A stretch of 63,264 nucleotides of DNA, filler included, from Globobulimina sp. (GCA_003354225.1; 30 parts of 30 records of this genome joined end to end with filler, not necessarily neighbours in it); one strand, 5' to 3'. Shown: positions 1 through 62,929, numbered from the whole stretch's first letter. Numbers and translations: made by a program. The notes: generated by a model not told the origin, from the letters alone.

Positions 1-890
1 TTAAAATCTTTTTGATACCCCCTTATTCGTACTGCCTCGGGTCTACCATCCCCGTTTATTTGTTTCACCAATTCATATGTCACCCGATCGTTCACAAATG
101 CATTAGTATCCACGAGTGCGTTCCGGCAACAACGTTTATTATCTTCATCATCCCACTCATGCGAGATTGCAGTCCACGTGAAAAAAGCTTCCATTCCCGC
201 TTCATCTATTACGAATCCAAATGTTCGTCTGTAATGCCATCTCTCAATCCATCCTTTGCGACGACCTAAATTATCAAAGGGCTCATAATTTTTGGGAGTA
301 CGGGCAGGGCGATGTTTACCAACGTTCTGATTCCATCCGTGGCGACGATTAGATTCCATCCAACGGACCTGTTTTTATATTGTTAAGTGGACTTAGACGA
401 ACGACAATAAAGCTTAACAGGTGGCGGACTAGCGCTGAACTTGCTATTCATTCTTCCATTATTATTTACCTGTTATTTCATTTTGAAAAGTGGATAGAGC
501 TGCAGTACTGTAGAACTTAACTGGTGGCACAGAGCGTTCTGTCGGGCGAGGCCTGTAATTATCATTGACCTGTTGTTTTAATTCATCGGTTCGCAAAATC
601 ACATTTGGTTGGCCTCTACCGTCATCGGGCTAATACGAATTATTTCGTGGCGGTTCATTCAACCATTGATTTATTGTGTCTCCACCGGGGGTTTCACGTT
701 TACCGCTTTTTTTAATTTCTTGCGTACCAATTAAGTCTTTGGCTTTACAAGTATCCATATGATATTGCATATCGTTAATATTAATAATGTATGCATTTCT
801 TTTTTCATGCTCCAAGACTTGCGATTCTCTCTTTGCGGCATTATTCAAATCTATCAAATCGTAGACGCGCCCTGAAACTGGATTTCGCAT
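1..890 (-). CDS. Spliced cold-shock (CSD/OB-fold) domain protein, 3' truncated; CSD exon is missing from the ORF track
   Basis: Manual translation of 368->1 gives RRKGWIERWHYRRTFGFVIDEAGMEAFFTWTAI...DRVTYELVKQINGDGRPEAVRIRG (RNP1/RNP2-like CSD pattern). Phase-0 introns predicted at 369-418 and 470-521. The link to ORF 630-890 is less certain. Confidence 0.65.
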
Positions 891-1110
891 ATTACACCGA
901 ATGGCGCCCGGACTCTTTGATGCATTTATTGTATCGTATAAGGTATGGTGTGAATGTCACACCCATGGTAGATACAATGAAAAGAGTTTTAACTCTTTGA
1001 CGCTAAGTTTTAATAACAAAATTGACTGGGACCATACAACTGGCTTTATTACATCCGGCACGGGTTTGTTCAACAAGGACTAGTGATTAAATATATATTT
1101 CGGTGAGGAG

Positions 1111-1488
1111 ATGAGACAAATCGGAGGTGCTATTTTTCGAATTAATGGAGGCCATTTTGTTGCGGCATATTTGATGAATGCAATGGAGTCTCGACAGAGA
1201 GTGAGGATATGGATTAAAATGGAAACACTGCAGGGCACAATAAATAAATATTTCAATGCCAAACGTGAGGATTGTATTATGATATTCGTGCATAAAGCAG
1301 AGAAAAGCTGTTATTGTGAGCTATATGATTCATTAGATATGGAGCAATGTCCAAATTGTTTACATTGGATTCATGACGCCTGTGTACTTGCAAATTATGA
1401 TACAGGTGCATCACATGGTTATGGTAGTCCTGGCGAGGAATGGGATGGTGCGGGCTGTGGTTATTGTGACAATTTACAAAGATTGTAG
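1111..1488 (+). CDS. Small PHD-finger protein
   Basis: CYC...QCPNCLHWIHDAC...GCGYC fits C4HC3 spacing. Confidence 0.7.
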   Translation: MRQIGGAIFRINGGHFVAAYLMNAMESRQRVRIWIKMETLQGTINKYFNAKREDCIMIFVHKAEKSCYCELYDSLDMEQCPNCLHWIHDACVLANYDTGASHGYGSPGEEWDGAGCGYCDNLQRL

Positions 1489-1721
1489 ATCAATGATTCA
1501 CTTTGTGTTCTTTTTGTTGTGGTCATGTTCAAATGTATATTTTGCTACTAATATATATATGATCTAGTTTTCATCATGCACTGTCTAGTGACCTTTGATC
1601 TCTTCGGTGTGATACAGTAACTGTGACAGTGTGTGTGTGTGTGTGTAAGATCAGTGCAAAAGTAGTATGCTTATATATGACATCTTGTATTCTTTTTTTT
1701 TTGTTTAATAAATATATGTAA

Positions 1722-1777
1722 GACACTAGCCAATTGGTTTTGGCATTGAAGTCTGGGTTCGAATCCCGTTAGTGTCG
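1722..1777 (+). ncRNA. tRNA-like element lacking an anticodon arm (tRNA pseudogene, SINE head or Pol III ncRNA)
   Basis: GACACTA/TAGTGTC 7-bp acceptor stem, A-box TAGCCAATTGG, D-stem GCCA/TGGC, B-box GGTTCGAATCC, followed by a T-tract. Confidence 0.6.
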
Positions 1778-1805
1778 CAGTCATTTTTTTTTTGGTATTT
1801 GAAAT

Positions 1806-1885
1806 ATATGATTAGATAATATATATATATGATTAGATAATATATATATGATTAGATAATATATATATGATTAGATAATATATAT
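1806..1885. repeat. AT-rich minisatellite (ATGATTAGATAAT + (AT)n), 4 copies
   Basis: Direct tandem copies are visible; a (GT)n microsatellite is also present at about 1629-1646. Confidence 0.85.
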
Positions 1886-2014
1886 GAGTACTAATATATA
1901 CATCATATATAGATCATATATATATGATATTTTGATGAAATTAGCAAATATATTATTAGATTTTATCAATATATTAGCCAAATCCTAAGGGAATCTTCGC
2001 AGTCTAATATATAT

Positions 2015-2114
2015 NNNNNNNNNNNNNNNNNNNNNNNNNNNNNNNNNNNNNNNNNNNNTTAATTAATTAANNNNNNNNNNNNNNNNNNNNNNNNNNNNNN
2101 NNNNNNNNNNNNNN
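2015..2114. other. Artificial contig spacer (first of 29; recurs about every 2.11 kb)
   Basis: N44 + TTAATTAATTAA (stops in all six frames) + N44, identical each time; contigs are 2010-2014 bp, sorted by decreasing length. Confidence 0.99.
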
Positions 2115-2310
2115 CTTGTTTTAAATTTGAATCAATATTTTTCCATTTTAGACTAATTTCTTTTGTGATTGCAGTCATTTTTAAATCTGGTTTTTCTTCT
2201 TTTACTTTTTGTCTGTTATCATTTAAAAATGAAAAATATGAAGATAACGATCGTTTTGGTGCATTCGGATCTTTTGGTTTTTTACTCTTTCTTTGGCGGC
2301 GTTGTGTCAT
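2115..2310 (-). CDS. HMG-box protein (HMGB/NHP6-like), 3' truncated
   Basis: KDPNAPKRSLSSYFSFLNDNRQKVKEEKPDLKMTAITKEISLKWK. Confidence 0.92.
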
Positions 2311-2385
2311 GGCTAAGAAGTTAATGTTGGATTTTTTTTTTGTTTTGATAAATGCAGTCAAAAACCACTCAACACTAAAGTAGTA

Positions 2386-2679
2386 ATGTCGTCTTTTTTA
2401 AGTATATGTCAACAGCATTTCCGGTCTGAAATGTCTCTGTTGGGAATATATTGCATCTTGGAATTTGCCCAAATTACTGTTGCTATAATATCATTAAAGC
2501 AAATAAAAGCTATTAATCAAAAAGATAAATTTCCAAAGTTACTGCTGATATCACAATGGATATTTTATTTATCCGCATTGTCCTTTGCAATGTCTGGAAT
2601 ACCAACCACAATATGTTTTTGCTTTGCATTGAAAGTAAATGATAAATATTATGAGCAGTCCAAAGAACAATTTGGATAA
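2386..2679 (+). CDS. Short 2-TM membrane protein, or truncated remnant of a 7TM-like family
   Basis: Two hydrophobic helices laid out like the N-terminus of ORF 34208-35371. Confidence 0.4.
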   Translation: MSSFLSICQQHFRSEMSLLGIYCILEFAQITVAIISLKQIKAINQKDKFPKLLLISQWIFYLSALSFAMSGIPTTICFCFALKVNDKYYEQSKEQFG

Positions 2680-2896
2680 ACGTCACTTAGAGCTTTCAAC
2701 GGAAATGGCTGTAACAACCATGGATGAACCATCTATTTGATATGTACTGTATATACTACTTTAATATGTTTGTTAATGCAATTATAACCAAATTATATTA
2801 GTTTAGATTAGTTTAGATTAGATTTAAGTTTTTGAAAGTCTTGGGGTTTTTTGATCAAGAATTCTGCCATTCCAGAAAGCCACCCGAACTTCAATC

Positions 2897-3947
2897 ATGT
2901 GTTGCGATTTTGTATTTGGTGGCGATATCGAGCATCCAAACATCCAAATTGCAAACATCCGAGGTAGCAACCAATACAAACTATGGACGAGCTCTGCTTG
3001 TTTTACAGTATTTTATTGTTTTGTATTGTTGTTTGCAATCATCACAGTTGTCTATATATGGTTTACAAACGATGCGTTGGGCATTTGCTACTCTCCAAAT
3101 TTAGTGTGGGTTTTATTGGCTCATATAATCAAACCATTTGTGCTAGCAATATTTTGCTGTCCTGTTTTATGTACAAATCAATCGATTTGCTGTGCTGTTC
3201 TAAGATTATCGCCATATATTTTTGTGGATGTTCCATATGCAGTTTTTGTAATGTTGTTTTCTTGGCTTCCTTTATTACAATGTATATTGGATCAAGATTT
3301 GATCAAAACACATGCATCGATTTTAGTCATATTACTTTCAAGCTTGGTTATTCATTTAATATTCCCTTTACTGGCCACTTTACGATTAATTGAAGTGATT
3401 GTTTTTGAACAAAGAGTTAAAACGTTGCGAGAAAATTACAGTCAACGACATGTCCAACGATATGAAGTTGAAGTGGCACCAATACACAATGAACAGAAAG
3501 AGGAGAAAGAAGAAACATTGACTGTTTTCCACCGTGATGGTTCTAGCACTCTCGCTGCTATGTTAGGAGATATCCTCGAGGACGAATCAAGAGATCAGTT
3601 TGATGAGACATTTATTTATGGAAATCGTAATGATGAATATATAAACACCTCTCTATCCAATATGTTTGCAGCAAGCACAAAATTTATATCTTCTGGTCTT
3701 TTCAGTAAATGGAACGAAGAGGAAATTTGTGTTATTTGTTACGATAATTTTGAAAAAGGTAAATTATGCGCAAAGTTGAAATGCGGACACATTTTCCATA
3801 GGGATTGCTGTAAACAATGGTTAAATGAAAGCGCAACCTGTTTAGTGTATATTTATATATTACTTTGTGAGGGATAATTAATTTAGATTGGTATAATATA
3901 TAGGTCCATTGTGCCGGATTGGAGTGACAAAACGTGCGTTTCTGTGA
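2897..3947 (+). CDS. Multi-pass membrane RING-H2 E3 ubiquitin ligase (intron 3840-3903)
   Basis: About 4 TM helices, then CVICYDNF...LKCGHIFHRDCCKQWL...T; splicing completes CPLCR. Confidence 0.9.
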
Positions 3948-4228
3948 TTTCCAAAATTAAATTATTGTTTCATCACGTTTCCATTTTTGCTGATTTTTGG
4001 AGTAAAATGAATGTCTGACGCTTCTACGTTTCCCTTGAAGAGGCACAGAGTGTATATATTTAAATTAATGTTTTTTTAAAATAAACCTATTACTAGAAAG
4101 CGACCATTCACTCAATTACTCTTTGCCANNNNNNNNNNNNNNNNNNNNNNNNNNNNNNNNNNNNNNNNNNNNTTAATTAATTAANNNNNNNNNNNNNNNN
4201 NNNNNNNNNNNNNNNNNNNNNNNNNNNN

Positions 4229-4705
4229 ATTCACATTGGTTCTTGCTTGCTGTTGAAATAATGCACGTTGTGATTGTGCTAATTGTTGCTGCTGCATTTG
4301 TGCCATCATTGCTTGTTGTTGCAGTGCACGTATTTGATAATTCTGCACATTCTGTTGCGTTTGATATTGTTTCTGCCACATTGCGTAATCTTGTTGGTTC
4401 AAATTTGTCTCAGAACCAGAATTTTTGTCTGTTATTTGATTTTGATATTGTTTTTGCCACAATGTATAATCTTGACCTTGTTGGTTTAAATTGGTTCCAG
4501 ATAAGGATTGTTTTTGTGGTATTTGCTGTATTTGATTTTGTCCCTGTTCTGCCATTGCTAAATGTTGTTGCCATTGTTTCTGATGTTCTGTCATTAAATT
4601 ATTCATTGATGCGGCATTTGCTGCTTGTTGCTGTTGGTATGCTATCCATTGTTGTTGTCGTTGCTGATAAACATTGTGTTGACTCTGTGAATATTGGTTC
4701 GCCAT
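4229..4705 (-). CDS. Gln-rich low-complexity protein, 3' truncated
   Basis: Q-rich ORF with an internal repeat (TNLNQQ..DY..WQKQYQ x2). Confidence 0.65.
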
Positions 4706-4891
4706 TACAAAAATTGAGACTAATCGAAGATGTTTAGAAAGATTTTCGAGATGTTTTTTTTTGTTTATCTCACTCTACTTACTCAAAAAACGGAAAACTA
4801 AATGACCAACACGCTACATCCAACGACTGCGCGATTGTTATTGTTTTTATAAAAAATAAACACATCAAGAGAATCCGGAAAAGTTTAAACA

Positions 4892-6172: not shown

Positions 6173-6342
6173 TTCAACAAAATGTGTACGCTTTTCCTTC
6201 TGTAATAAATTATTGTTTCAAGTACTTTCAACTATATAAATTNNNNNNNNNNNNNNNNNNNNNNNNNNNNNNNNNNNNNNNNNNNNTTAATTAATTAANN
6301 NNNNNNNNNNNNNNNNNNNNNNNNNNNNNNNNNNNNNNNNNN

Positions 6343-14794: not shown

Positions 14795-16249
14795 GCGGAG
14801 AGAAAATATGCGGCGGTTTTGAACCGTCCGCCGGGCCACCATTGCGACGGTGAGAAGTATAGCGGTTATTGCTACATAAACAACATCGCAGTGGCCATTG
14901 AGAAGCAGTTGAACCAAGACACCAAAGTGTTGGTATTGGACATCGACGTGCATCACGGCGACGGCACTCAGAAATTGTTCTATGCAGAGCCTACAGTGCT
15001 AACTGTCTCCTTCCACCAATACGACGGCTCCTTTTTCCCTTCGAGCGGACTGCGGACTTCGTATGGACCGTCGCGGCGACATCCGGCCTATGGCACGAAT
15101 ATAAACGTGCCGTTAGATGATGGCGCCTCGGACTTGGATGTGTTGTACGCTCTGCGTAATATGGTGTGGAACATTGTGGATAAATTCAAGCCGGACATTG
15201 CTTTCTATGCGCTGGGCACCGACGGCGTGGCCAACGACAAAGCCAATAATTCCACCATATTCACGCCCAGTTTGTACGGGCAAATCGCGTATGAGCTGCG
15301 GGAATATGTTAAGTTGATCGTGGTGACCACGGAAGGTGGCTATACGACGGATTATTTGGCCTCGGGAATGAGCGCCGCTTTGCATGGCCTGACGGCACAG
15401 ATCGATGTCGATCATTATCCATCGGAATTCAAGCAAAGTGACATTTTGCCGGCGACCATACACAATGTGGCAGCCACCATTAGTGATTTGCGGCGGGTCT
15501 ATGACTTCGAGCAGGATCCGAATGAGATACGGAAGATTTTTAGCGGTTATAATGACAGTTTCAGCCGAGAGAGTATGTACATTCCGAATGATATGGATTA
15601 CAATGAGAGTGACAGCGAGATGCATGACATGGATATGGAAGATATGGAGATGGCGTTTAGCGAGGAAGTGGAGGTGAAAAAGGATAAGAAAAGCAAGGGA
15701 AGGAAGCATAGGAAACATAGGAAACACAAAAAGAGGGATAAGGACCGGATTGATTTGACGGAGGACAAAGAGAGGAAGAAAAAGAAAAAGAAAAAGAAGA
15801 AACATAAAAAACATAGGAAGGATAAGGAGAAAAGGTCAGTGTCGAAATGTGTGGATAGGAAACAGAGGAAAGAGAGGCGGGATGGCAAAGAGATTGAGAT
15901 AATAGATTTGATTGAAGACAGTCCGATGGCGGATATTAATATAAATGTGCACGGAAATGGAGGGACGAAAAAGAAGAAGAAAAAGAAAAAAAAACATAGA
16001 GATAAGAATAAGCATAGAGATAAGGATAAGGATAGAAAGAAAAAGAAGAAAAAAGCAAAAATCAATGATAATGAGAATAAATCAGATATTAATAATGTTG
16101 CTGTTAATAAGGATGAGAATGAAAGTAATAAAATGTGTACATTGAGTAATATTATTGGGAATGGAGTGAGTGATTTACTTAATATTATAAATCAAGATAA
16201 AAGTAAGAATAATGATAAGATATCATCGGATATCATAGTAATTGAATGA
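14795..16249 (+). CDS. Zn-dependent histone deacetylase (class II-like) with Lys-rich tail, 5' truncated
   Basis: RPPGHH, GYCYINN, LDIDVHHGDGTQ, SFHQY, NINVPL, GTD...D, EGGY. Confidence 0.95.
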   Translation, partial: AERKYAAVLNRPPGHHCDGEKYSGYCYINNIAVAIEKQLNQDTKVLVLDIDVHHGDGTQKLFYAEPTVLTVSFHQYDGSFFPSSGLRTSYGPSRRHPAYGTNINVPLDDGASDLDVLYALRNMVWNIVDKFKPDIAFYALGTDGVANDKANNSTIFTPSLYGQIAYELREYVKLIVVTTEGGYTTDYLASGMSAALHGLTAQIDVDHYPSEFKQSDILPATIHNVAATISDLRRVYDFEQDPNEIRKIFSGYNDSFSRESMYIPNDMDYNESDSEMHDMDMEDMEMAFSEEVEVKKDKKSKGRKHRKHRKHKKRDKDRIDLTEDKERKKKKKKKKKHKKHRKDKEKRSVSKCVDRKQRKERRDGKEIEIIDLIEDSPMADININVHGNGGTKKKKKKKKKHRDKNKHRDKDKDRKKKKKKAKINDNENKSDINNVAVNKDENESNKMCTLSNIIGNGVSDLLNIINQDKSKNNDKISSDIIVIE

Positions 16250-17096: not shown

Positions 17097-18920
17097 TTAC
17101 TTAACTCCATTATTAACACGTTCAATCTCATGGCATATATCTGATTTGCTGCTATACCAATCGCTAAATCCATATTCATCTTTCATTTTATTCGCAACAT
17201 TCATTCCAGGTTCATGCATCGCGCCATCTCCATGATATCCATGCACATATTTGGATACATCTTCATTTGTCATGTTTAATTTATTAAAAACAATCTGTTT
17301 GTTTTTAACATGACCGATAGCAGTTTTGTTGGTATTAATATCATTTGGATCATCTGTCATTGCTTGTTGGTGTATACCAACAGATACAGGTAACATTATA
17401 TGCGGATGTATTGATTTTACCCGCATAAATTCAAACGAAGTGTTCCATTTGGATCCACAATCACTGGTTAATGAACAGCCTGCACTGGATCCTGTTGCTT
17501 CTAATGGAGCTAATATAGAATTTGTAACCAAAGGGATTATTTCATCACATATTGCTTGTTTTAATTGTTGTAAACATGACCTTGAATGCAATCTGTTTCC
17601 AACCATTGCACCGGATACATAATAATCTGCTAATATGTATGGCCATTTATTGTCGGCAATACGGTCTTCAGTCTTTCGTATAAGCCAATAAAATATATTA
17701 GTCATAATTTTCTTACTTCTCTTTATATCCGGCATCCATATTTTCGGCTCTTTTTTAATTTGGGCGTGAATATAATATCTATTTGACTGTTCGTCAAAAT
17801 GATAATAACAAATGTTTTTCAGATAATAACAAATGTTTTTCATATGCTTTTCTTTTTTTATGAACGCCACCGCCTAAATCCGTTCCACACGCTTCACAAT
17901 GTATAATATAAAAACCGTCAATAATTTCATCTTCAAACAAACATAGTCCTTCATGACCATAGAGCACTAATAATCCATCAGGATGCGTTATATATTTAGT
18001 ATTATTTATTTTTTCATCTGCTACAACATTCAAATATTGATTCCATTTAATTTCTTCACCACCTTGGTCATCATCATGGTCATCAACATTGTTTCCAACA
18101 TTTTTTCCACCATTGCTTCCAACATTGTTTCCAACATTCTAAATATATACATTCAGTTTGTTTTAATATCATAATATGTATGTAACTAAACTGCCCAAAA
18201 TGCACTCAAAGTATGTTGGCTTTTCATTTTATCCTTCTCTTTTTTCATTTTATTTCGTTTGCCTGAACCTTTTGTATACGTAGCAATTATTCCATTTCTC
18301 CATTCCATAGTTTCAATATCTAATTCAAGTATTGGCAAATTGGTTATTGTATTATTCCATGTGGATTGTTTGCATTCTCGCGTACGATGTTGTTTTGCAC
18401 TGCGATACATACCAATATGGTCACAATCCGGACATTTAATCATTTTATATTGATCACAATTAAATGTATTATATTCCGATATTTGTTGAATGGACCACTT
18501 TCTCACATTGCGTAAAGTCAATTTCCCGCCGCATATATTTAATTGATTTGCAAATGAATCTGGTAATGTAGCCTTATGTTTTGCTGTCTTTTGCTTTCTG
18601 AAGTTCTAAAGTAAAAAAAACAACAACTTTTTACATTTTCAATCATGGTACAACAACGTTTGCTAACTTAACTACATTTCCTTCGGTCATGGCCAGGATG
18701 CGATTGTAATTCAACATAATTGATCTCAACAACTGTCTCTTCGCATTAATATCTATTTCTGTTTGTACGTTCAAAATAATATGTTCAGCAAAACATAATA
18801 AATATACACCACAATCAACGGAATTATTTTGTTGTTGACAAATTACAGATTGTACATTCAATGTGAATCCATTCGAAATGCCTTGTAATTGATATTGGAG
18901 AGAGATAAAATGGTTAATAT
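17097..18920 (-). CDS. Spliced Ulp1/C48 protease + zinc-finger (BED-like) protein, transposon-type, 5' truncated
   Basis: QQNNSVDCGVYLLCFAE. Introns about 18606-18651, 18139-18191 and 17779-17830 join four track ORFs in frame and complete CEAC...KHLYYIH. Confidence 0.7.
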
Positions 18921-27472: not shown

Positions 27473-29328
27473 TTCCGGCGGATTGAGGGTGGATTTAAAT
27501 AAAGTGTTAATGTCGTTTGGTTCGTCATTATTTTCCATTGTTTTATATGGCACCATGTTGTATATTGAAGCAAAGCAAAATGGGTTGTCATTAGTTGAAT
27601 TTTTATGCGTGGTAATGACCGGTTCATTTAATTTCGTACCCAAATTACCGGCAATTGAACGAGGGAAATTAAAGCAAGATCTGGCGAGTGTAAATTGGCT
27701 ATATTATAAATTTACAAATACTGATATTGGGAATATTTTAATGGCATTCACGTCTCCGTACGCATATTGTAACCGTGTTAAGGTATAAATAGCGTCAGTA
27801 ATATTGCACAAAGTTGATGAAAACCAAGGGTCCGGACTTCGGATCGCATCTTATCCGACACCTTGGTTTTCATCCTGGTGCAATACTAAAATGATGTAAT
27901 TACGATAAGATCTCAAATTATACGATCCAGAAAATCCATCGTTTCTCAGGTAAGTTCTTTGGCAAACTTTTGGAGACCAAAGACGTCGAATTAATATATT
28001 CCTGGCGAGAGAGTCACATAAAAGACTGGTTTTTTATATTTGATATTGATGAATCGCAGTCCTTTGAATTTGAAGAGTTTGCGCGTTTAATTGTGTGCAT
28101 GAACTGTGTGAATCAATTATATTCATATTATAACTCAATCAAAAACGAAGCACCGCAATTAATATACTCCTATAACTACAATATTGACTCGGTCACAATC
28201 TATGAGTTTATAGAGATATTTAATTCGTTAGCTTCAAAGAATAAAAGTAATATTTATTGCATCTGGAAGCTTGACATATTGCTTAAGATCAAGTCCTCGA
28301 CAGAATGGTTACCATTGCTCGACCATTATAAGCCGCTGTATTACAGCATACACACCAACAATATCACAATGATTAGCATATTATCTGCATATAACTATTC
28401 TGACAAAGCTTATGAAAATAGGATCGAATTTGATAAATCATTGATTGAGTCCATTATTAATAAAAAATATAAAATAGCGATGATTATCTGCGAGAATAAA
28501 GGCATTCCCATTGTTGTTTATATCGATAGAGTAAAATTTAAACGATTACCAGGTTATATACAGAATAATAATCATAAGAATATGTATTTGTATGTTACTG
28601 TTCATGTTATGAATTGTGTTGAGTATAAAACGCGTGTGATTCCGATATCAGATGATAACGTTTTTGATGATTATATTTTATTTGTGATTCCATTTCAAAA
28701 GATTGGTAATTTTAGAGAGAGAAAGTATAATTCATTGGAATTTAGATTGTCATATAAATGTGAACCGGAAGAAGAGCAGAAAGAAAAAGAAGAAGAGGAT
28801 AGGAGTGGTAAATGGATGTTTATTGATAAAATAAGTATAAATATGAATGAATATAAACAAATATATAGAAAGCAGGCCGGTGAGATTCTTAATTTAATTC
28901 GACAAAAACAAGGAGGTATTATGCAAATGGGCATAGAGAGTGATAAAGAATATTACATTGAGGAAGAAGAAGAGAGTGAAAGTGATGAGGAGTTTGATGA
29001 TGAAATTGATGAAAGTTTCTATAACGTCGAGGTAAAAAATGAGGAAAATGATTTTTTAATATATAAAGTGTATTTTGGTGCATTGAATATTTACGAACAA
29101 CATGGTTTGACATATTTGGATGAAAATAATATTCATTTGTTACAATCTGTGGAGGAGTTAGGTAAATATGGTGATGATATAAATTATATAATGGATGAAG
29201 GGGATGAGGATTCTCCAGTAATTAAGCAAAACCAACAAGTATCATTAACTCAACAATTACCAGCTTCAGATTATGGCTCTACGAAAATAAATAACAAGAC
29301 TGATAAGACTATGACATACACCGTATAA
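27473..29328 (+). CDS. Membrane protein with EF-hand-like and C2-like domains (intron 27783-27909), 5' truncated
   Basis: A phase-0 intron joins ORFs 27483 and 27970; FDIDESQSFEFEEF EF-hand; YVTV...YKTRVI...VFDD C2-like. Confidence 0.65.
27802..27885. repeat. Palindromic MITE-like insert inside an intron
   Basis: GATGAAAACCAAGG/CCTTGGTTTTCATC plus outer TATTGCAC/GTGCAATA. Confidence 0.8.
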
Positions 29329-32799: not shown

Positions 32800-33459
32800 T
32801 TAATAGTTTTCATCATTATCATCATCAGAAGATATTTCGTCCAATGGGTCGCCCGTTCTTTTCTTCATCATATACCAAAAATCATCAGGAGATACTACAC
32901 CATCCCCATCTTTATCCGCCTCCTCAATCATTTCCTTTAATTCTTCATCATTTATATCCTCACCCAATTCCTGGCATATTTTTTTTAAATTTCTTAGTGT
33001 TATATAGCCGGTGTTATCTTCGTCAAACAAGCGAAATATTTTATTAATATCGTCTCTCGTATCGGCTTTGCATATTCTTCCAGTCATAATTTCTAAAAAT
33101 TCCTCGAAATTAATTTCATCTCCGATATCTTTATCTAATTCAAATCGAATTTTTTTTAATTCCTCTTTTTGTGCGTCATATCCCAACGCTTTCATTGCCG
33201 CCCGGAGCTCTTTCATATCAATGGTACCTATTCACGTTATTTACATATACAAAATGGAAATAAAAAATAATTCCGATTGCTGAGTATATTTACCTGAATT
33301 GTCTGTATCAAATAACTCAAATGCCTCTTTTAACTCTCTTTTCTGATTATCATTTAATTGCTGGTTCTGATGTTGTTTGTTGTAAACGTTTGATGGTCTT
33401 AATCTTCTTAATGGTTTCGATTTTGATTGGATTTGATGCCTCATTGGTTTCGACTGCAT
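32800..33459 (-). CDS. CETN: Centrin (intron 33228-33293)
   Basis: QKRELKEAFELFDTDNSG|TIDMKELRAAMKALG...FRLFDEDNTGYITLRNLKKICQELGE...EMIEEADKDGDG. Confidence 0.95.
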
Positions 33460-38178: not shown

Positions 38179-39686
38179 ATGTCGTCCTCTAAACAATACG
38201 TTCTTGCTGAGTACAATAATCAAACCCGAAAACGTAGGTATTTGTATCATCGAACAAAGTCGATCGCATTTGTATATTTGTTCTAAATCTACATAGTTCA
38301 AGGCGACTGGGCAAATGACACCTACCCAAATTTAATTAAAGCAGTTCGTGTCAAATTTAATATTGTGCATGAGATGCAAATTGAGATCAAAGTTTATGAC
38401 AAACACAACAACAAATTCTTTACAATTGACGAAGATGATATGGTTGAAATCCAACCAGCCGGATCAATAAAAATAACAAAATCAAGAAATCAAACGAAAA
38501 CTAAACCAGTGCCACAAACATTAAATCAAGAAGAAGAAGAAGAAGAAGATGCAATTCGTCGTAAATGGAAAGTTAACTCCAAAGTTGAAGTATATTCTAA
38601 TACAATGAAAAAATGGATTAAAGGCACAATAAGTCGTATAGTTAATGACGAAGAAGGTGAATGGCTACGAATACAATATCTTAAAAATCGTGAAAAAGAA
38701 ATACAACGTTTCAGTAAATACATTCGACCAACTGTTCAAGCAACAAAACCCGCGGCAGTCTCTCCGGTTGAAATTGTACCGCAACAAAAAGAAGAAAAAG
38801 CAGATGTAGCTCAAGAAGATACTGTCGTTGTTGTTAAGTACCACATTATTTTACTTAATTATATATAATAAAAAAATTAAACTCTACACGTTTTCAGGGG
38901 AAAGAAAATGTAAATTCAGGGAAAGAAAATGTAAAGCAAGCGATAAATGAAGAAACTGCGGAGAAAACACCCGAAATTGAACAAAAAGAAGAACCAGAAC
39001 AACATAAAAAAAATGTTGAGCCAGAAAAAAAAGTTGAGGTTGAATGTGAAGGAAAAACAAAAGATGTTAAGTGTTTCTATTGTGTTTACTATATGACGAC
39101 ACATAATAAAGTGTATACATTTTAGGATGCAGCAAAAAATGAAGAAACGGCAGATAGTATTATACAAAAAGTGGAAAGTGGAGCTGGAGCTGCAGCAGAA
39201 TTTGAAGCAGGGATTGCAGGGAAGAATCCAATTTATATTAAATGTAGCCGATGCAGCTTATATAATGCTACGTCATCGGCGCGGTGTGTCGCTTGTTTCC
39301 AATTATTACAAATGTTTCCATGTAAAAGAGGTCCCCATGAAATAGTGAATGAAAAAATTGTACCAAATGTACAGAAACCATCATATCGATCGTATGCATC
39401 AACATATGCGGCAAAATATCCATGGTTTGCTCGCCAACAACGCGATTTTCAACGTAAACGTAAGGCGCAATATGCTGCAGCATGTTATGCAAAACAATAT
39501 TATGAAGGTATTCTTCCGCCGTTACCTCCATCATATCGATATTATGGACCTATTCGCGTTCGAGCAAATTATGGCAATGTATTTGGCGGAGGTGGGAATT
39601 ATAATATTTGTTGGGAATTCAATACAGCTGTCGGGTGTCCACGAGGCGCATTTTGTCAATGGATTCATCAATATGTAGTTAAATAA
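38179..39686 (+). CDS. Four-exon protein: PB1-like, Tudor/Agenet-like, RanBP2 zinc finger, CCCH zinc finger
   Basis: Introns 38234-38296, 38833-38897 and 39066-39125 keep frame; WKVNSKVEVYS..KKWIKG; CSRCSLYN...CVAC; CWEFNTAVGCPRGAFCQWIH. Confidence 0.75.
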
Positions 39687-41133: not shown

Positions 41134-41849
41134 TTATTGTCCAGGTGAGAAGACATCATGTTGACCCACGTTATCCATCAAAGATTCATTAATGTTCTCT
41201 GCAGATGGTTGTTGTTGTTGTTGTTGTTGATTTGAAACAATAACAACATCTGGCTCTGTCTGATTCTGTTGTTGTTGTTGTTGTTGAGATGGTGGATTTG
41301 TGTATCCTTGATCTTCTGCATATTGTTGTTCCAATTCACTCAATCCCTGATATTGTCCACCTCCAGTCACCATTGTCGATTTTCTCATATTAAAACCTTG
41401 TATTTGTGTAATTATGTATTCATTGAATAAAAAAGTTAATAAAATTTACCTGTTTTTACCTCAAATCCATCATTTTTTAATGATTTTAATAAGAAATAAC
41501 AGAATAATGGTTTTGGTAATAAAATGAATACAGCCATCACCAATACAAACACGGCTAAGAAGGCTTTTTCATTTATTATATGTTGACCAAATACGCATAA
41601 TGATAAAAAATCTGTAAACACTGATAATATGTAAAAATACCACGCCATTCCACGATTTGCGTGTTTGTCATCTACCGGACCATAAACAGCACGTAACAAT
41701 AATAAAAAAACAAAAGTATTGATAATTAACCAAAGCATTCCTAACATTGGCAATTCCTGCAACACCGCAAAGGAAAAAAATATTGTATGCCATATCAATG
41801 CTACTTTCCAGTTAAAAAAGCTTGCTAATTCAGCCATAATGGTCTTCAA
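41134..41849 (-). CDS. AGTRAP-like 4-TM protein with Gln-rich tail (intron 41397-41449)
   Basis: ILSVFTDFLSL...FVLVMAVFILLPKP; the intron joins the two track ORFs; the true start is uncertain. Confidence 0.55.
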
Positions 41850-43057: not shown

Positions 43058-43464
43058 CGTTTAGATTAAGCTGTTTTTAGTTCAAGTTGGTTAACTAGAA
43101 CTTAACCGATCATTATTGAGAAGTAAATGTGAGAAGTTGGACACCCGATCATGGTTATCCACCATTGACAAGGCTGAATTAAAATCATCCGCCTTAGCTG
43201 TTATCGGGCTTTGTCGCACTTTGTCAGAGTATCAATGCTTGCGCAAAACAAAAAACACTCAGATTTTCGACTTATGTTTTTTTAATTTGATTTTTTTTTT
43301 GCTTTTCGATTTCGTTTTATTCAATGCGTTCATCATTTGGACCATTTTCATTAGTTTCGTTAAATCAAAATTTTGCATAATTTTCTTGTCTTTTAGCGTT
43401 TTAACCACACCTTCCACTGTTCTCAATGCATCAATTATTCCACTGTCATATACATCAAATTAAA

Positions 43465-44267
43465 TTAATACAAGTTACAAAAACCTAATATAAATCTTAA
43501 CGATTGTTTTGGATCCATCAACGCAGAAAACACAGCACCAATAACACTGACAACTTTTTCTGAAACATCCCAATAAATATTTGCAAATTCCGTTAATTGG
43601 TCCATTGTTTTTGGATATTGGCTAATAACTTTACTCAAAAATGGTTTATCAAATATATATTGTTCAATATTTTCAATTTGATTGATAAAACTTTGATTAT
43701 TTGAAAGCACATCGATTGATGATAATATTAGCAAAATTAAGCACATTCGAACAATGCCAACTTTCGCCATTAACAATACAATGGATAATTTGGACAATAA
43801 CTGGCTGTTATTTCCTGTGCCACCAATTTTTATTCTTGCATATGTTTCCGCCAATGTTGCAGCAGCGGTAGTTAATAATTTATTGATTTGATTTGTTAAA
43901 ATGGATACATTGCTGTTTATTTTCTTTCTGAGTTCTTCAGAGATTAACGATGAATTTAATAATGGTTTGATTTGAGTCGCAAGCAATATTAAACTGTACT
44001 ATTCATTAAAAAAAACAAGAAAAGTGTTGCGTATAATAAATATATATATTAACCCAGCGGTAAGGAGAAGAATTTGCTTTTTGTGCTTCATTGTCAGAAA
44101 CTTTGTACAAGTAAACTTAGAAAATTAAAATTAAAATTTAAAGATAATTTAACATAGTCATTTTGGTCCGATTCCAAAGATAACTCTCTGAGTGCTCTTA
44201 CGATATCTGGCGAGTCATTGAATGAATCTTTTCCTTCTTCTTTCAATTCAAATTCTGATATTTGTAA
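43465..44267 (-). CDS. Multi-exon uncharacterised protein, 5' truncated
   Basis: ORF 43465-43986 extended by predicted introns with donors at 44053 and 44153. Confidence 0.5.
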
Positions 44268-52367: not shown

Positions 52368-52403
<36 letters not shown>

Positions 52404-52711: not shown

Positions 52712-52811
52712 NNNNNNNNNNNNNNNNNNNNNNNNNNNNNNNNNNNNNNNNNNNNTTAATTAATTAANNNNNNNNNNNNNNNNNNNNNNNNNNNNNNNNN
52801 NNNNNNNNNNN

Positions 52812-55250: not shown

Positions 55251-55292
55251 GGAAAAATTGACATGTGTAAAAACAGATATGGTCAATTGATG

Positions 55293-55839: not shown

Positions 55840-56042
55840 AATTGAGAGATGATAGCATGAAGATTTTCTTGAAATTGATGCGATTTTTTCGCGTAGCAAT
55901 ACGCACATTTTAAATAATAAAAAAAAGAATTAAAAAATAACAAATCCGATTTCATTTAAACATTAAAAAGTGTATGTTATGTGCAGATTCCATTATTTTT
56001 ATTCGAGGAAAAACATACCAGAAACAGTCGTTTTCAACATTA

Positions 56043-56786: not shown

Positions 56787-57033
56787 TTTTATTATTTCTT
56801 TTAAAGTTTGTTTTTGTTTGTCAATAAGTGCAGTTGGGTGTGTTTTTAACTACTTTTTGTTGAGTTGAGTATGTTTTTGATTGGTTGAAAAATGTTTTGA
56901 TTGGTTGATAATTTGTTTCTGTTCTTGAGGAATNNNNNNNNNNNNNNNNNNNNNNNNNNNNNNNNNNNNNNNNNNNNTTAATTAATTAANNNNNNNNNNN
57001 NNNNNNNNNNNNNNNNNNNNNNNNNNNNNNNNN

Positions 57034-58590
57034 CAGTTTTATGCGCGGCTATGGACTTATTATGTGAATGGACATTGTGTGGATAAGATCGAGTTGTTAG
57101 TTCTCGGTGGAACTTGGAGTGAATATCCAGTGCAATATCAAGAGGAGTTCATTCGAGATTGCTTTTATGCTTCAAACACTTTTTATGATTTTATGGATCT
57201 GACTCATCTGAGTGGAGATAAAGCGTTCTCTGAACAAGAATGCAAAAAGAAAATCCGTTTAAAAAAGTCGTTGATTGAGGAACAAAAAATGAATGAAAAC
57301 AGCCAGTGCCGAATTATTGGCATTACATTGGAAACGAGACCAGACTCAATAAACAAAAGAGAGGTAAAACAGTTGCGATATTACGGCTGTACGAGAGTAC
57401 AAATTGGCATTCAACACACAAATGATGCGATATTGGCAAATATTAACAGAGGCTGTTTGAATGTGGACGCAATTAAATGTGTGAAATTGTTGAAAAATGT
57501 GGGGTTTAAGTTGGATTTCCATTTAATGCCAGATTTGCCGGGCAGCACAGTAGAGATTGACGAGGAAATGTTTTATTATGTTTTAAATAGTACACTTTTA
57601 CAGGCGGACCAATGGAAAATTTATCCGTGCCAAACCACCAAATATACGGTGATTGAGAAATGGTTCGAAAGTGGCAAATATTGCCCATTTGAAGCGAGCC
57701 AATTATTAAACTTATTGATCAAAGTAAAAAACCACATTCATCCATGGATTCGCCTAAATCGCATTATTCGCGACATTCCAAATCAATATATTTTGGCTGG
57801 AAATGAGGTTACAAATTTAAGGCAATTTTTACAGAGAGAAATGAAGGAAAATGGCGGCAAATGTGCTTGTATTCGATGTCGAGAGATTGGCGCAAAAGAA
57901 TTGGATTTCAATGATGAGAAAAATAAAATTGTTTTAAAGATTCGTTGTTATGAATCGAGCGATGGCATTGAATATTTCATTTCTTTTGAAACTTTTGATG
58001 AAGAGACAATTTTTGGCTTTGTCAGGTTGCGAATCTGTGATAATTTCGAAACGGTTAAAGATGTATTCCCAGAGTTGGCGGATTGTGCTATGATCCGCGA
58101 ATTGCATGTTTATGGCCAAATGCTTCCAGTCTTTACAAAAGGTGATCAAATGAAGAAAACGCAACATTCCGGCTTTGGTAAGAAATTAATGAATGCTGCT
58201 GAAATTATTTCGGTGTTGAATGGATATAAAAAAATAAGTGTCATTGCTGGCGTTGGAACGAGGAATTATTATCGCAAAATGGCATACAAATTGAAAGGAA
58301 CGTATATGATAAAAAAGTTGGGCAATGTTCGTTATTACACACATTTATTTGGCAATTCATTGGAATTGGTTGCGACCCAAACTCCGTATAAAGAGATTGT
58401 GCACAAATTGAAAGAGAAAACAAATTTCGATTCTTCATTGAAAAAATCAATCCATGTTGAAAAAGATTTGGTGGTCAAACATTATGTGATCCAGAAAAGC
58501 CTCATTCTTTCTCATCTGCTCAGCATTAATGTGCTTGTCGTGCTGATTGCTTTTCTTATTCTGTGCTTTCTGCGAAATAAATATTACTGA
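57034..58590 (+). CDS. ELP3: Elongator subunit 3 (radical SAM + KAT) with C-terminal TM helix, 5' truncated
   Basis: DKIELLVLGGTW, GITLETRPD, GCTRVQIGIQH, HLMPDLPGS, KIYP, RLNRIIRDIP, CIRCRE, RELHVYG, QHSGFG, GVGTRNYY. Confidence 0.96.
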   Translation, partial: QFYARLWTYYVNGHCVDKIELLVLGGTWSEYPVQYQEEFIRDCFYASNTFYDFMDLTHLSGDKAFSEQECKKKIRLKKSLIEEQKMNENSQCRIIGITLETRPDSINKREVKQLRYYGCTRVQIGIQHTNDAILANINRGCLNVDAIKCVKLLKNVGFKLDFHLMPDLPGSTVEIDEEMFYYVLNSTLLQADQWKIYPCQTTKYTVIEKWFESGKYCPFEASQLLNLLIKVKNHIHPWIRLNRIIRDIPNQYILAGNEVTNLRQFLQREMKENGGKCACIRCREIGAKELDFNDEKNKIVLKIRCYESSDGIEYFISFETFDEETIFGFVRLRICDNFETVKDVFPELADCAMIRELHVYGQMLPVFTKGDQMKKTQHSGFGKKLMNAAEIISVLNGYKKISVIAGVGTRNYYRKMAYKLKGTYMIKKLGNVRYYTHLFGNSLELVATQTPYKEIVHKLKEKTNFDSSLKKSIHVEKDLVVKHYVIQKSLILSHLLSINVLVVLIAFLILCFLRNKYY

Positions 58591-59149
58591 CAAAGACTGA
58601 GATTAAATTAGAAATCTTTTCCACAATTTTAGTAATTTCATCATCGGCGGTCGGAATCTTCCTTCATAAAATATCCATTCTCCACGGATACCGCTAACTG
58701 TTTGGTTTAATTCCATTTTCAGTGTAATTTACCGATTGGTTTACTTTGATTAAATAATAAATATCATTTTAAATAATAAATATAAATAATAAATGTTAAA
58801 TATAAATTCTAATATAAATGCCTGGTTTGGGTGTATTCCGTGATCTTTATCACCATACTATTTTAGTTTGCATACAGTTTATTGCTATCTGTGTAGACTG
58901 ACTAACGCGTGGTTACACTCAAAGATGAAAGATGTTTTGTTCAAATGTTTTTTCTACTCCAAACACTCTAAAAACAATGAGTTTTGAGACTAATCCACCT
59001 CGTGCTCCACATACAATGCAACATGTTCAACAACAACAACAACANNNNNNNNNNNNNNNNNNNNNNNNNNNNNNNNNNNNNNNNNNNNTTAATTAATTAA
59101 NNNNNNNNNNNNNNNNNNNNNNNNNNNNNNNNNNNNNNNNNNNNTCATA

Positions 59150-59245
59150 TGAGGAGGAATTGGATGCAGACATCGAGGTGGAATTGGACGCAGACATTGA
59201 GGTGGAATTTGATGCAGACATTGAGGTGTAATTTGATGCAGGATC
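59150..59245 (-). repeat. 24-nt tandem repeat encoding (SASNSTSM)n
   Basis: About 4 copies in a Ser-rich ORF fragment. Confidence 0.75.
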
Positions 59246-59969
59246 AATGGAATCGAAGGACGCGGAATCGATGTTACTTTCGGACGAGGCTGCTGCTGCT
59301 TGGCCAAAAGCAAAGGAATCACTGGAATCGCTGGAATTTGACACTGATACGCTACTGCTTGCACTGCCTAATTAGATGCAATACAAAATATATGAGTAGA
59401 TTTGCATAATGGGAAAGTACAAAAAAAAGATTTGTTGTACCTGAACTGCGTATTTAGTAATAGTTTGTGGTAATTTAATTTGAATTGAATTCGAACTGTC
59501 ATTTTGTAGGTAGGTATACGTAGACATACACGTGGCTAAACCATAGGGTTAATGATAGGGCTATTATGGCTAAGAGATGGATATTCTTCATTTCAATCGA
59601 TTATTTTAGGTGCTTACGATGAGTTGATACGACGAGTTGATATACGAGTTGATACGAGAGGATGGTGGATGAAGAAAAAAAGGTTTTGGTTGAAAAATGT
59701 AAAAAAAAGTATTCTGTTGCGTGTTAAAATTATTTGTAAACCTAAACCCATATATAATGTATACTTAATATGCAATTATATACTCATGGCAATATAAGGT
59801 AAATAATTCTAACACGTTTCGTCAACAGTCACCTTTTGGAGTCTATGCATGCAGCTTGTACAACACCTGACATCTAATGATCTCATATTCGATCCGTCCT
59901 CATAGGCTTGGTACATCGAAAAAAAAAATATGCTTCAAAACAAATCACAACAAAACGAAGAACAAATTA

Positions 59970-60987
59970 TTAATAATTATTTTCAGAGAATTCTGATTCT
60001 AAATCAACTTCAGATTCCAAGATCCGTTGAAGTTCTTGTTCATTTGCACGATTATAACCATATCCATCCATAAAATCAGAGGTTAAAATCTGATGTTTTA
60101 AGAAATGACCATGTGATCCATACAGAAATTTGGATGGATTATGAAATGAAATCAAACCATGTTTAATCATACAATTTGCAATATGCGGACTCAATAAAAT
60201 CCAAACAAAATTAAACAATGATATTAAACTCCACATTGAAAATGCCTCCGTGCCATAAATGCCATATAATACACAAAAAGAACCTATTTATAATATTTAT
60301 AGCTATGATTACGAGTTCAATGATAAATAATACAATAAACACACCTAAAGTGCACGAAGCATGACATATAATGAGCCACAGTGGGCGGTACAATGTGAAT
60401 AACAATATATTTGGCAGCAAATATAAGCAATTCATAAAATATATAATGATTTTCCATAAAATATGACTTTGCATTAAAGCATGCGCATAAATAATAGCAG
60501 ACCAATCCTGTTTGCCTTTGTCGCCAACAAATATACAAATCGACTCTTGATATGATATTTCATTGTATATTCTTACAGTTATACAAAATGCGTACCATAA
60601 GTAATAAAACATCAATATTAATTTAAGTGAGCCTTTACGGAGGGAATCCGAACGAAATAAATCATTATAAAACGATGTTTTGTGTGCAAATTTTAATTGA
60701 ATTATAGGAAATAAAAACAGTAAAAACATTATAAAATGAGATAAAATTTGATTGAATAAATTGCATGAATTTATAGTGGTATTTTCTTTTATAGCAAACA
60801 TCCAAATTAATGTTTGTATGATCTCTTGGATTGCAATGGTAAATACTAATGGTATTGCTGCACGATCGATATATTGATTTCGATAATAAATATAAATAAT
60901 TCCAGTCCATTGGAAGGCTAGAAATGAAAATGGAATTTCCCAACTAAAATGTTCATGCTCTTGGTGCAGAGATGCCGTTAAACCCAT
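59970..60987 (-). CDS. Multi-pass membrane protein (intron 60284-60344)
   Basis: A phase-1 intron joins two ORFs (CTLG|SFCVLYGIYGTEAFSMWS); QE..Q..IW...C...NQ motif. Confidence 0.65.
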
Positions 60988-61254
60988 TGTTTTTTTGTTG
61001 AGTCACTTGAGTAAGACACAATTAATATTAACAATGACACCGCATCTTTTTTTGTTGGCGTTGTTTATAATTAACTTTTACGTAATATGTTCCACCCAAT
61101 CACTTGATTTAAGCAATTGGATGAAAATCAAAGCGAATGCGTTATGGAATAAAANNNNNNNNNNNNNNNNNNNNNNNNNNNNNNNNNNNNNNNNNNNNTT
61201 AATTAATTAANNNNNNNNNNNNNNNNNNNNNNNNNNNNNNNNNNNNNNNNNNNN

Positions 61255-62929
61255 CTCCTTGATTTTCAAATTGCGGACACATTTCAATGTCTAACTGGTC
61301 GCACATAAATTGAACTTGTCTGGAAAGCTGTCCATTCATTGCTTTTGAAGCTTGCAATTCGAGCTCCTCCATTGTCCATGGCGCAATTGCTCCAAATTCA
61401 GGCGCATCAGTTCTTGGTGCTTCTCTGTGCAAAAACAAATCCTCGAAAGTTGCGGCCCATTTATGTCTTTCGCCGAGATATTGGTCCAAACCAAACAGTC
61501 TATTCGCAGTTGCCATCATCGACGTGCCTTCATATTGCGAGGTGGCAGTCGGCCCATTGGTGGCATTATGGATAACTACGCCTTTATTGATCCACGGCGA
61601 AACCACCACCGTCGGCACGCGAATGCCCAACCGATCAAATGTAAAGCCATTGTTTGCCACCACGCCGTCTGGCGGAGGCACGCCGGTCTGTGGCGGAGCG
61701 ACATGGTCATAAAAGCCACCATGTTCGTCATAGGTAATGAGTAAAGCGGAAGAATTCCAATATGACGAATTCTTTAACGATTCGTAAACATTTTGAATCA
61801 AGGTCTCGCCGTGCGATACGGAGGCATCTTAGCAGTATAATTTGCGGTTTATTTGCGGGAAACAGAGAGTGTGCATATATGCGATATGACTGTGTGCGTA
61901 TACGGAGACTCTCTGTTTGCTGCAAATATGGAGCCATTATGGAAACAGAAGGGTATACAAATATATTTTATGTCAATTTCCAGGGACCTGGATGTTGCCA
62001 ATTTGGTGGGCCGTATTGCTTTGAGGATACCAATGATGGCTGCAACCAAACGAAGGATGCTAAGTCGTCACCTTTTAAATCTTGATAAAATTGCGAAATC
62101 GGATGGAGATTATTGGAGTTTGGCGCGACAGTCAAATCTTTAAAATATCCCAAAGCCCAAACAGTAGCGACCCAATAACCAGCCCAAGAAATATCATTTT
62201 TTGTCAACAAATCAAACTATTTGTCATTATAAATAATTTAAGTGCGTCGACACTCTGCCATTGATAATAAAACATATTAGGTACTTAACATATGATTGTT
62301 GGCTCCATAGAGTGCCGTTATAATTATCCGTCATTCCTATATATAAGAAACGTATATTGTAAATAATAAATATTAAAAGTTGATATACCATTTGCTGTGC
62401 CAGACATTGAAAAGGCTCTGTTTGGATCTGTTGGTCCTGGCACTGAACAAAACCAATTATCAAATACAGCGTATTCCATAGCTAATGTATTTAAAACATG
62501 CGACGACGTATTGTCAATGGCGAACATTCTCATTGGATTTGTAAGATCGTGTTTGTTTAAATGAGCACTATAAACGAAGCCATCCATTTTGGGAACGTCA
62601 ACTTGATGGACTGGCTTTAAATAACCGTAGATTTGCCTCGTTGTACCATCGAAAGTATGGTCTGGATCATCAGGACCTGTATCATAGCCTCCTTTTGATA
62701 CAGCCACACAAGTCGACGAGGTATCGCCTGGAACAACGCAATTATACTCATCACCATTTAAACCATTGATTTCTGGGTTTAATTGTTTTAAAAAACCTAA
62801 ATAATGGTCAAATGAACGGTTTTCCATCATTAATATTATTAAATGTTTAATTGGGTTCTCCTGTTGACATTGTGCAATAACTATGCAGCTTAAACACCAG
62901 AAAAGGATTTGTTGCAATTGCAAGGACAT
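61255..62929 (-). CDS. Secreted phosphoesterase / non-specific phospholipase C (NPC/AcpA family), 3' truncated
   Basis: Signal peptide, MMENRSFDHYLG, SVPGPTDPNR, YDEHGGFYDHV, LGIRVP; introns 62337-62388, 62217-62289 and 61828-61987. Confidence 0.95.

Follow-up and report, generated by a model that had tools for sequence, protein, structure and literature searches.

Recurrent GTTAAGT-type 5′ splice sites in foraminiferal genes and a possible shifted register of their recognition

The pairing of GURAGU at the start of an intron with the 5′ terminus of the U1 small nuclear RNA (snRNA) is among the most conserved RNA-RNA codes of eukaryotes. A stretch of 63,264 nucleotides from Globobulimina sp. 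(GCA_003354225.1), analyzed here over its whole length and called the window, raises the question of whether introns may also be marked by a longer signal. A reading made from the sequence alone had pointed to a recurrent 5′ splice site (donor) of the form GTT[AT]AGT, in which AGT occupies intron positions +5 to +7 and the exon lacks G at position –1. We found the junctions of this donor class to be real wherever they could be checked; the shifted donors are real and recurrent, and the class is probably conserved. The window joins 30 contigs, each 2010-2014 bases long, in order of length and with spacers of 44 N, TTAATTAATTAA, and 44 N between them; its GC content is ~34%, and it is that of an AT-rich, intron-poor eukaryote.

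Six verified introns

Six introns could be verified, three by RNA and three by homology; in the following list, as in the text, a slash marks the exon-intron boundary.

62217..62289, minus strand: intron 2 of the PLC-like phosphoesterase gene (PLC), 73 nt, donor tat/GTTAAGTACC (GTTAAGT), acceptor AATAG/TT
62337..62388, minus strand: PLC intron 1, 52 nt, donor atg/GTATATC, G at –1
61828..61987, minus strand: PLC intron 3, 160 nt, donor cag/GTCCCTG, G at –1
3840..3903, plus strand: intron of a RING-finger gene, 64 nt, donor cct/GTTTAGTGTA (GTTTAGT), acceptor ATATAG/GT
33228..33293, minus strand: intron of a centrin-like gene, 66 nt, donor cag/GTAAATATAC (GTAAATA), G at –1
43443..43501, minus strand: intron of a contig-21 gene, absent from the earlier list, 59 nt, donor atc/GTTAAGATTT (GTTAAGA), acceptor GACAG/T

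The RNA evidence comes from contig 30, which carries the PLC gene and to which contigs from four coded runs (X2, X6, X7, and X8), RNA-like there, align. An X2 contig of 971 bases differs from the window by 0-4 bases per piece, and X2 is therefore from the same organism; X6 to X8 are ~5% diverged, with identical junctions. The joint 62216>62290 (CT..AC on the plus strand) is present in X7, X8, X2, and X6, i.e., in all four runs, and its cut ambiguity (“both”) is 0, so that the GTTAAGT donor at 62289 is shown at the RNA level. The joint of intron 1 (62335>62388, cut +1) was found in three of the four runs (X7, X8, and X2), and that of intron 3 (61827>61988) in all four, the depth being zero at 61858-61924 in every run. 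All three joints have GT..AG ends on the minus strand, and PLC homologues read SGTSNGM, QQSYFDLL, and NWQHPDASV across introns 1, 2, and 3, respectively. The contig-30 introns are thus absent from mature RNA and their exons are exactly joined, as for U2-type introns. This check of junctions by RNA had been called for together with the original proposal, and it confirmed the donors 62289, 62388, and 61987.

In the RING-finger gene, splicing from 3840 to 3904 gives the product ..NESATCPLCR and completes the RING finger; in the unspliced frame, the Pfam match to zf-RING_2 ends at profile position 41 of 44, exactly at the exon end of 3840. Splicing of 33293-33228 restores the EF-hand loop DTDNSG/TIDMKEL in the centrin-like gene, and the last 14 residues before 33293 match positions 1-14 of 29 of EF-hand_1 (weak, E = 0.015). 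For the contig-21 gene, an exon search with HMMER through 1.84 billion representatives returned six matches. Two of these, the transcript-derived P0243 (MMETSP) and P0245 (merc), read ..PK[QE]SG[LI]SD.LKTV.. gapless over the predicted 43501 junction, which verifies the intron 43501-43443. The present analysis thereby adds one new verified site (43501), and it adds two further candidates.

The six verified donors fall into two groups. GTTAAGT, GTTAAGA, and GTTTAGT lack G at –1 (0/3) and are three independent sites in three genes, with the flanked contexts tat/GUUAAGUAC at 62289 and cct/GUUUAGUGU at 3840; GTATATC, GTCCCTG, and GTAAATA all have it (3/3). G stands at +6 in three of the six and at +5 in none, and no verified donor has the form GT[AG]AGT, GTAAGT included, nor does any of the 16 working introns described below.

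The 13 donor coordinates named in the sequence-only reading all carry the sequence given for them. Seven of these, GTTAAGC (418, minus), GTTAAGT (521, minus; 38833, plus; 39066, plus; 62289, minus), and GTTTAGT (3840, plus; 18191, minus), form the proposed class; they lie on contigs 1, 2, 9, 19, and 30, and none has G at –1 (the bases are t, a, t, t, t, t, and a). Two were said to be fixed by protein motifs, the RING finger (3840) and the phospholipase (62289), and both are verified; the other five are in-frame GT..AG solutions at junctions of open reading frames (ORFs). The companion claim, that donors with G at –1 are degenerate on the intron side, holds for the verified 62388, 61987, and 33293, which have no intronic AGT; the other donors cited for it, 41449, 60344, and 27783, are predictions in silico, and for 27783 another donor, 27777 (GTTAAGG), is also in frame. 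The suggestion that the shifted donor is a normal splicing code of the lineage is plausible for one class of introns only, as three of the six verified donors are of the other kind.

The organism is a foraminifer, nearer to rotaliids than to Reticulomyxa, as the closest relatives of its conserved proteins are foraminiferal: Elp3 is 73% identical to that of Bolivina argentea, 72% to that of Nonionella stella, and 50% to that of Reticulomyxa, and the PLC exon is 65-68% identical to Bolivina and 54% to Nonionella.

Recurrence of the motif and candidate introns

Whole-window counts of the motif are unremarkable; it is the position of the copies that matters. GTTAAGT occurs 10 times against 6.9 expected, GTTTAGT 8 times against 6.9, and GTAAGT 14 times against 19. 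Donors were therefore screened by position and without regard to motif. In the strict screen, a GT site passed if the frame upstream was open for at least 50 codons, a stop came within 22 codons, the sense frame was longer than the antisense frame, and a compatible AG 40-170 nt downstream opened at least 35 codons. The background was 2.4% (145/6035 GT sites), and GTTAAG was the top hexamer, with 5 of 15 copies passing (binomial p = 2.0e-5, or ~0.005 once corrected for 256 hexamers); GTTTAG passed at 1/31, GT[ACG]AAG at 0/52, and GTAAGT at 1/14. A looser screen, passed by 795 of the 6035 sites, retained nine of the 15 GTTAAG (1.98 expected) and seven of the ten GTTAAGT (1.32 expected). GTTTAGT alone is not enriched and rests on one verified and one strong case.

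Eight of the 15 GTTAAG copies lie on the coding strand where an open frame ends at a candidate junction (18672, 27777, 38833, 39066, 43501, 62289, 521, and 418). These eight donors are in phase 0 or 2 and never in phase 1, the only phase in which the TAA of the motif is in frame, and the internal stop therefore does not explain the screen. The remaining copies are coding (15308 and 43043), antisense (6990 and 382), or without class (43106 and 47588), apart from a ninth at 17105, which lies at an ORF end with a stop directly after. At 17105 (minus strand), GTTAAGTAA closes a frame of 256 codons and may be either the natural end of the protein (..NNGVK and stop) or a class donor whose next exon is off the contig.

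A gene finder based on dynamic programming, with codon scores, stops, and GT..AG but no donor model (chains scoring at least 25), returned 36 introns at iteration 0, seven of them GTT[AT]AG and none GTAAG; some of its junctions are false and join separate genes, and it misplaced the RNA-verified 62289, so that its exact boundaries are unreliable. Iterating the finder with learned splice-site matrices inflated the 36 to 151 “introns” and was dropped; an expectation-maximization procedure with one site per junction produced a profile with much noise and put the verified 62388 donor in the wrong place.

Sixteen introns, chosen by us and in the earlier reading, make up the working set. All 16 begin with GT and end with AG, nine belong to the GTT[AT]AG class, and no branch motif consistent across the 16 was found. 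Besides the verified introns, the following sites are considered.

18139..18191, minus strand: candidate intron, 53 nt, donor gca/GTTTAGTTAC (GTTTAGT), acceptor TATATTTAG/AAT
18606..18672, minus strand: candidate intron after a Ulp1-protease exon, 67 nt, donor gta/GTTAAGTTAG, acceptor TTTTTTTACTTTAG
38833..38897, plus strand: candidate intron, 65 nt, donor gtt/GTTAAGTACC, joins two open frames
39066..39125, plus strand: candidate intron, 60 nt, donor gat/GTTAAGTGTT, picked by the motif-blind gene finder
470..521, minus strand: candidate intron, 52 nt, donor cca/GTTAAGTTCT, paralogous to 369-418
369..418, minus strand: candidate intron, 50 nt, donor cct/GTTAAGCTTT, a tandem copy of 470-521 that takes in the exon flank GCCACC
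27777..27909, plus strand: contig-14 candidate intron whose two alternative in-frame donors are 27777 cgt/GTTAAGGTAT and 27783 aag/GTATAAATAG
38234..38296, plus strand: candidate first intron of the contig-19 gene, 63 nt, donor aac/GTAGGTATTT, predicted by the gene finder
41397..41449, minus strand: candidate intron, 53 nt, donor cag/GTAAATTTTA, G at –1
15308..15314, plus strand: GTTAAGT inside the histone deacetylase coding sequence, without sign of splicing

The candidates differ in how tightly their donors are placed. Whereas 18191 is the sole in-frame donor for the best acceptor, in-frame alternatives 3-18 nt off are found for 38833, 39066, and 18672; the alternative donors comprise 38824, 38827, and 38830 for the first, 39084 and 39039 for the second, and 18675, 18657, 18654, and 18651 for the third, whose upstream exon matches Peptidase_C48. 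A homologue search with the contig-9 exon between 18672 and 18191 brought up 159 candidates, none of which scored. Pfam searches with ORFs around candidate junctions gave no family for nine of ten in a first set (the tenth being Peptidase_C48) and for all ten in a second. The donors 521 and 418 count as one event because they are tandem duplicates: on contig 1 (369-533, minus strand), the units GCCACC[AT]/GTTAAG[TC] ... TCCACTT..AACAG/GT repeat around a 51-nt exon, and the intron was duplicated with the exon. At 15308, 171 open codons precede the motif, the next stop is 939 nt on, and the Hist_deacetyl match runs unbroken over profile positions 101-297.

The contig-14 intron contains a near-perfect hairpin of ~95 nt (27790-27885, plus strand). 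Its 133 nt fold at –44.9 kcal/mol (z –6.1; 0 of 200 shuffles as stable), and the hairpin, of which the window holds no second copy, could be an insertion like a miniature inverted-repeat transposable element or a structured small RNA.

Relatives of the contig-21 gene bear on the age of the motif. The genomic ENA gene calls P0244 and P0248 (57% and 51% identity) run into the intron orthologous to 43501 and read ..KDS-L-R-R(end) and ..KES-L-S-V.., i.e., S-L-[R/S]. The codon that follows TC/G begins with the T of GT, and Leu there is TTR, so that the donors of the relatives should be GTTR; the protein sequences further imply an Arg or Ser codon after it, as GTTAAG[R/Y] would give. The motif is thus likely kept at one orthologous intron in two relatives. 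Genomic homologues of Elp3 showed no read-through inserts and hence yielded no extra donors. Among JGI metagenome contigs scanned with the PLC alignment, 24 loci were recovered, all at ≤50% identity; most match without interruption, like transcripts, none is a close genomic locus of a foraminifer, and the scan supplied no additional orthologous introns. A further ENA genomic call, P0002 (70% identical to the window PLC), has an in-frame insert of 19 residues (GIFNN...IFQS) between GGFY and DHV that resembles a retained 57-nt intron; its codons, read back, would give a donor G/GTAT.. with G at –1, of the other class.

Reading of the shifted motif

We favor, with moderate confidence, the explanation that these are ordinary GT-AG spliceosomal introns of a foraminifer, 50-160 nt long, with two compensating classes of donor, in one of which AAGU is read one base further into the intron. 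In class 1, an exon-side (A/T)G/GT would be combined with a weak intronic part (GTAAAT, GTATAT, or GTCCCT); in class 2, G at –1 would be replaced by the seven-base intronic signal G-T-T-[A/T]-A-G-T. The AAGU block would be read one base deeper in the intron, first by the 5′ end of a canonical U1 snRNA and then by the ACAGAGA box of U6, and U at +3 would pair in the usual place of U at +2. GUUAAGU would thus adopt a “shifted” or “bulge +2/+3” register and GUUUAGU an “asymmetric loop +3/+4” register, and cleavage would stay before the first GU. Both the reader of the motif, whether RNA or protein, and the genome-wide commonness of the class are matters that we infer.

Such registers have precedents. 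Human atypical 5′ splice sites are reportedly read by noncanonical U1 registers, as Roca and Krainer (in 2009) and Roca et al. (in 2012) are said to have found; to our knowledge, shifted or bulged registers have been described only as rarities in human genes. By prediction, Tan et al. 2016 (PMC4856993) place 68 of 201,541 human sites in the “bulge +2/+3” class and 349 in the asymmetric-loop +3/+4 class, and they put the share of all validated noncanonical registers at ~1.5%. Their test oligonucleotide for the asymmetric loop +3/+4 contains GGUUUAGUAU, and the shifted-register one, /GUNAAGUAU, also given as /GUCAAGUAU, has no G at –1; in the “bulge +2/+3” class, either U of GUU is unpaired. The sites described here resemble the human ones in having the same sequences, GUUUAGU being that of the asymmetric-loop oligonucleotide, and in cleavage at the first GU. 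They differ in frequency: the registers are rare in human, whereas the class accounts for three of the six verified donors and nine of the 16 working introns here.

Pairing was predicted with RNA.duplexfold against the 11-mer of the U1 5′ end printed in PMC4856993, on the assumption that the organism has a canonical U1. Positions +3 to +8 of GUUAAGUA are predicted to be paired, and cca/GUUAAGU is predicted to adopt the full shifted register, with G+1 paired to C9, U+2 opposite C8, and U+3 paired to A7; under the same assumption, the pairing is better in a noncanonical than in the canonical register. T at +3 appears to be required (GT[ACG]AAG, 0/52), which fits pairing at +3 and not a free bulge. 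The cag/GTAAAT donors have predicted energies of –8.3 and –8.5 kcal/mol (quantile ≤0.006 of all GT sites), which suggests that a canonical U1 5′ end is present.

Donors elsewhere offer two further comparisons. In the two-class architecture of 5′ splice sites, AG//GU sites stand against //GURAG sites, with compensation between exon and intron, contacts of U5 and U6, and N6-methyladenosine (m6A) in U6. The verified donors with G at –1 have no intronic AG and the AAGT/TAGT donors have no G at –1, as in that architecture; unlike it, the intron-side class has an extra base (GU-U-AAGU), and the numbers are too small to show the anticorrelation statistically. Budding yeast has the donor consensus GTATGT. 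Lineage-specific extended consensuses of this kind are described for intron-poor protists and yeasts (PMC10245619). The window is like these lineages in its few introns and long conserved donor motif, but their frame has six bases (GTRNGT), whereas here G at +6 and T at +7 are conserved. Published foraminiferal introns are, like the present ones, GT-AG, short, and few per gene: Reticulomyxa has ~2 introns per gene of mean length 87 nt (Table 1 of PMC13746701), and in passages of PMC6783311 and PMC3079666, foraminiferal introns are termed only “canonical.” We found no description of a GTTAAGT-type donor in Foraminifera in the literature, with subscription papers (the Reticulomyxa genome and actin introns) and supplements outside the scope of the search.

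Several points weigh against a shifted reading by canonical U1. Verification covers only three sites of the class; most junctions are predicted in silico, the working set is hand-picked, and 521/418 is one duplication. The motif is not sufficient, as the copy at 15308 is coding and others are antisense or intergenic. The absence of G at –1, 0/10, is not significant alone (~0.1 at 20% G, by our estimate). The predicted pairing is only modest: GTTAAGT donors reach –4.0 to –5.7 kcal/mol, values equaled by 5-17% of all GT sites in the window, and canonical U1 pairing alone therefore fails to explain the recurrence of all seven bases. That GT[AG]AGT is unused and GTAAGT unenriched would be explained no less well by a changed optimum. 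Our best reading is nevertheless canonical U1 in a shifted register, as a prediction in a window that holds no snRNA gene (0 Rfam families at gathering level).

The competing explanations are taken in decreasing order of probability. If the machinery itself were changed, by a U1 with an extra base at its 5′ end, be it every copy or a single isoform, or by an altered contact of U6, U5, or a protein, GUUAAGU would be the true optimum. We regard this as unlikely. It would account for the recurrence of the full motif despite modest canonical pairing, for the lack of GT[AG]AGT donors (0/6 verified, 0/16 working), for the poor showing of GTAAGT in the strict screen (1/14) and in the window counts, and for a GTTR apparently kept in the relatives over ~45% protein divergence. 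It sits badly with the 5′ end of U1, which is almost invariant among eukaryotes, and with the verified, canonical-like cag/GTAAAT donors of the same genome; nor was an snRNA sequence of any kind seen in the window. A search for a U1-like RNA with an inserted A had 0 matches in prokaryote genome contigs, a collection unlikely to hold a foraminiferal U1, so that the result is uninformative.

A bolder form of this idea, which we think rather improbable, is that in this rotaliid-like lineage, if not in Foraminifera at large, the optimum has moved from GURAGU to the seven-base GUUAAGU, with GUAAGU essentially unused, the reading RNA remodeled, and the motif kept at orthologous introns. The remodeling would consist of an extra base at the U1 5′ end or of an obligatory shifted register fixed by changes in U1-C, U5, or U6. 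If true, this would be the first lineage known to us in which the length of the code between U1 and the 5′ splice site has changed.

It is improbable, too, that the class is an effect of small numbers, i.e., that the introns are real, that past the GT their donors are simply degenerate, and that GTT[AT]AGT, a minor variant, is by chance over-represented in these 30 contigs and in the reader’s choice. The near-expected window counts (10 versus 6.9 and 8 versus 6.9), the single pass of GTTTAG among 31 copies, the three verified donors of other kinds among six, and the many in silico junctions with in-frame alternatives are what such an effect would produce, and the share of class donors is estimated from 63 kb only. 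This account is opposed by the rank of GTTAAG as top hexamer in two motif-blind screens (p = 2e-5, ~0.005 corrected), by the three independent verified sites in three genes, and by the probable conservation at the orthologous intron of two relatives.

A mobile or duplicating, introner-like family of introns, sharing its donor by descent, is very unlikely. The tandem duplicates 521 and 418 include their exon flanks, the first 10 bases are common to 62289 and 38833, the element at 43106 shares GTTAAGTTCTA with 521 and ..AAAAACAG with 418, and in four of the 16 introns, a stretch of 6-7 nt matches the intron’s own 5′ end in inverted orientation (shuffle p 0.04-0.075 each, a weak hint). Against descent from one family, the nine class introns, when aligned, have a mean column identity of 40%, and no columns but G1, T2, and one other are invariant; beyond the donor, only the tandem pair is alike. 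The orthologous intron seems old, being common to relatives at 51-57% protein identity, and neither a target-site duplication nor a terminal repeat was found. Near-identical copies of whole introns, the mark of introners, were not seen in the 63-kb window, which is a weak test. U12-type introns of the minor spliceosome have a virtually nil probability and are ruled out on donor sequence, since none of the 16 donors matches the U12-type consensus and all of the class are GTT[AT]AG; a CTTAAC 13 nt from the 3′ end of the 418 intron is like a U12 branch site, but the other class introns lack one at that distance.

A lineage in which at least a third of introns begin with GUUAAGU or GUUUAGU and hardly any with GUAAGU would be a natural experiment, bearing on the handover of 5′ splice sites from U1 to U6 and on how cleavage is fixed at the first GU. 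There is also a practical side: gene finders trained on donor models of six bases will set exon ends wrongly in foraminiferal genomes, as our motif-free predictor did at the 62289 junction.

Other elements in the window

Further ORFs in the window encode the histone deacetylase, a papain-type protease, RCC1 repeats, XAP5, a G-alpha subunit, and Elp3, next to the centrin-like EF-hand protein, the RING finger, the PLC-like phosphoesterase, and a retroelement RNase H; ribosomal RNA was not found in the window. Two genes are of mobile-element type. That on contig 9 (16908-18920, minus strand) has the Ulp1-protease (Peptidase_C48) exon followed by lineage-specific exons, and that on contig 18 (35921-37932, plus strand) encodes the retroelement RNase H.

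Between two genes of contig 21 (43071-43106, minus strand) lies a 36-nt element, GTTAAGTTCTA...CTAAAAACAG, the first 11 bases of which are those of the 521 intron and the last eight those of the 418 intron; it may be a short intron of a 5′ untranslated region (UTR) or a chance match.

Immediately upstream of the PLC start codon (62929), many contigs of all four RNA-like runs align to 62936-62982 (minus strand) and diverge gene-ward into different sequences, with at least 11 loose ends at 62932-62936 among the matches listed and 15 more beyond these. In several of the diverging contigs, an ATG follows a few bases on (by our reading of the reverse complement). At the opposite side, Illumina adapter is reached in two runs, at 62965 and 62973, an indication that the 5′ end of the RNA is fixed, and the depth over the bin is 2-3 times that of the neighboring exon in X2 and X8. 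The element looks like a shared 5′ end of the spliced-leader type or a dispersed 5′-UTR element. Its genomic copy adjoins the PLC 5′ UTR without a break, with a GT following at 62935, and no second copy was found in the window. Farther upstream of the PLC gene, 63045-63264 is filled with inverted and direct repeats of 58-89 nt with ~90% identity.

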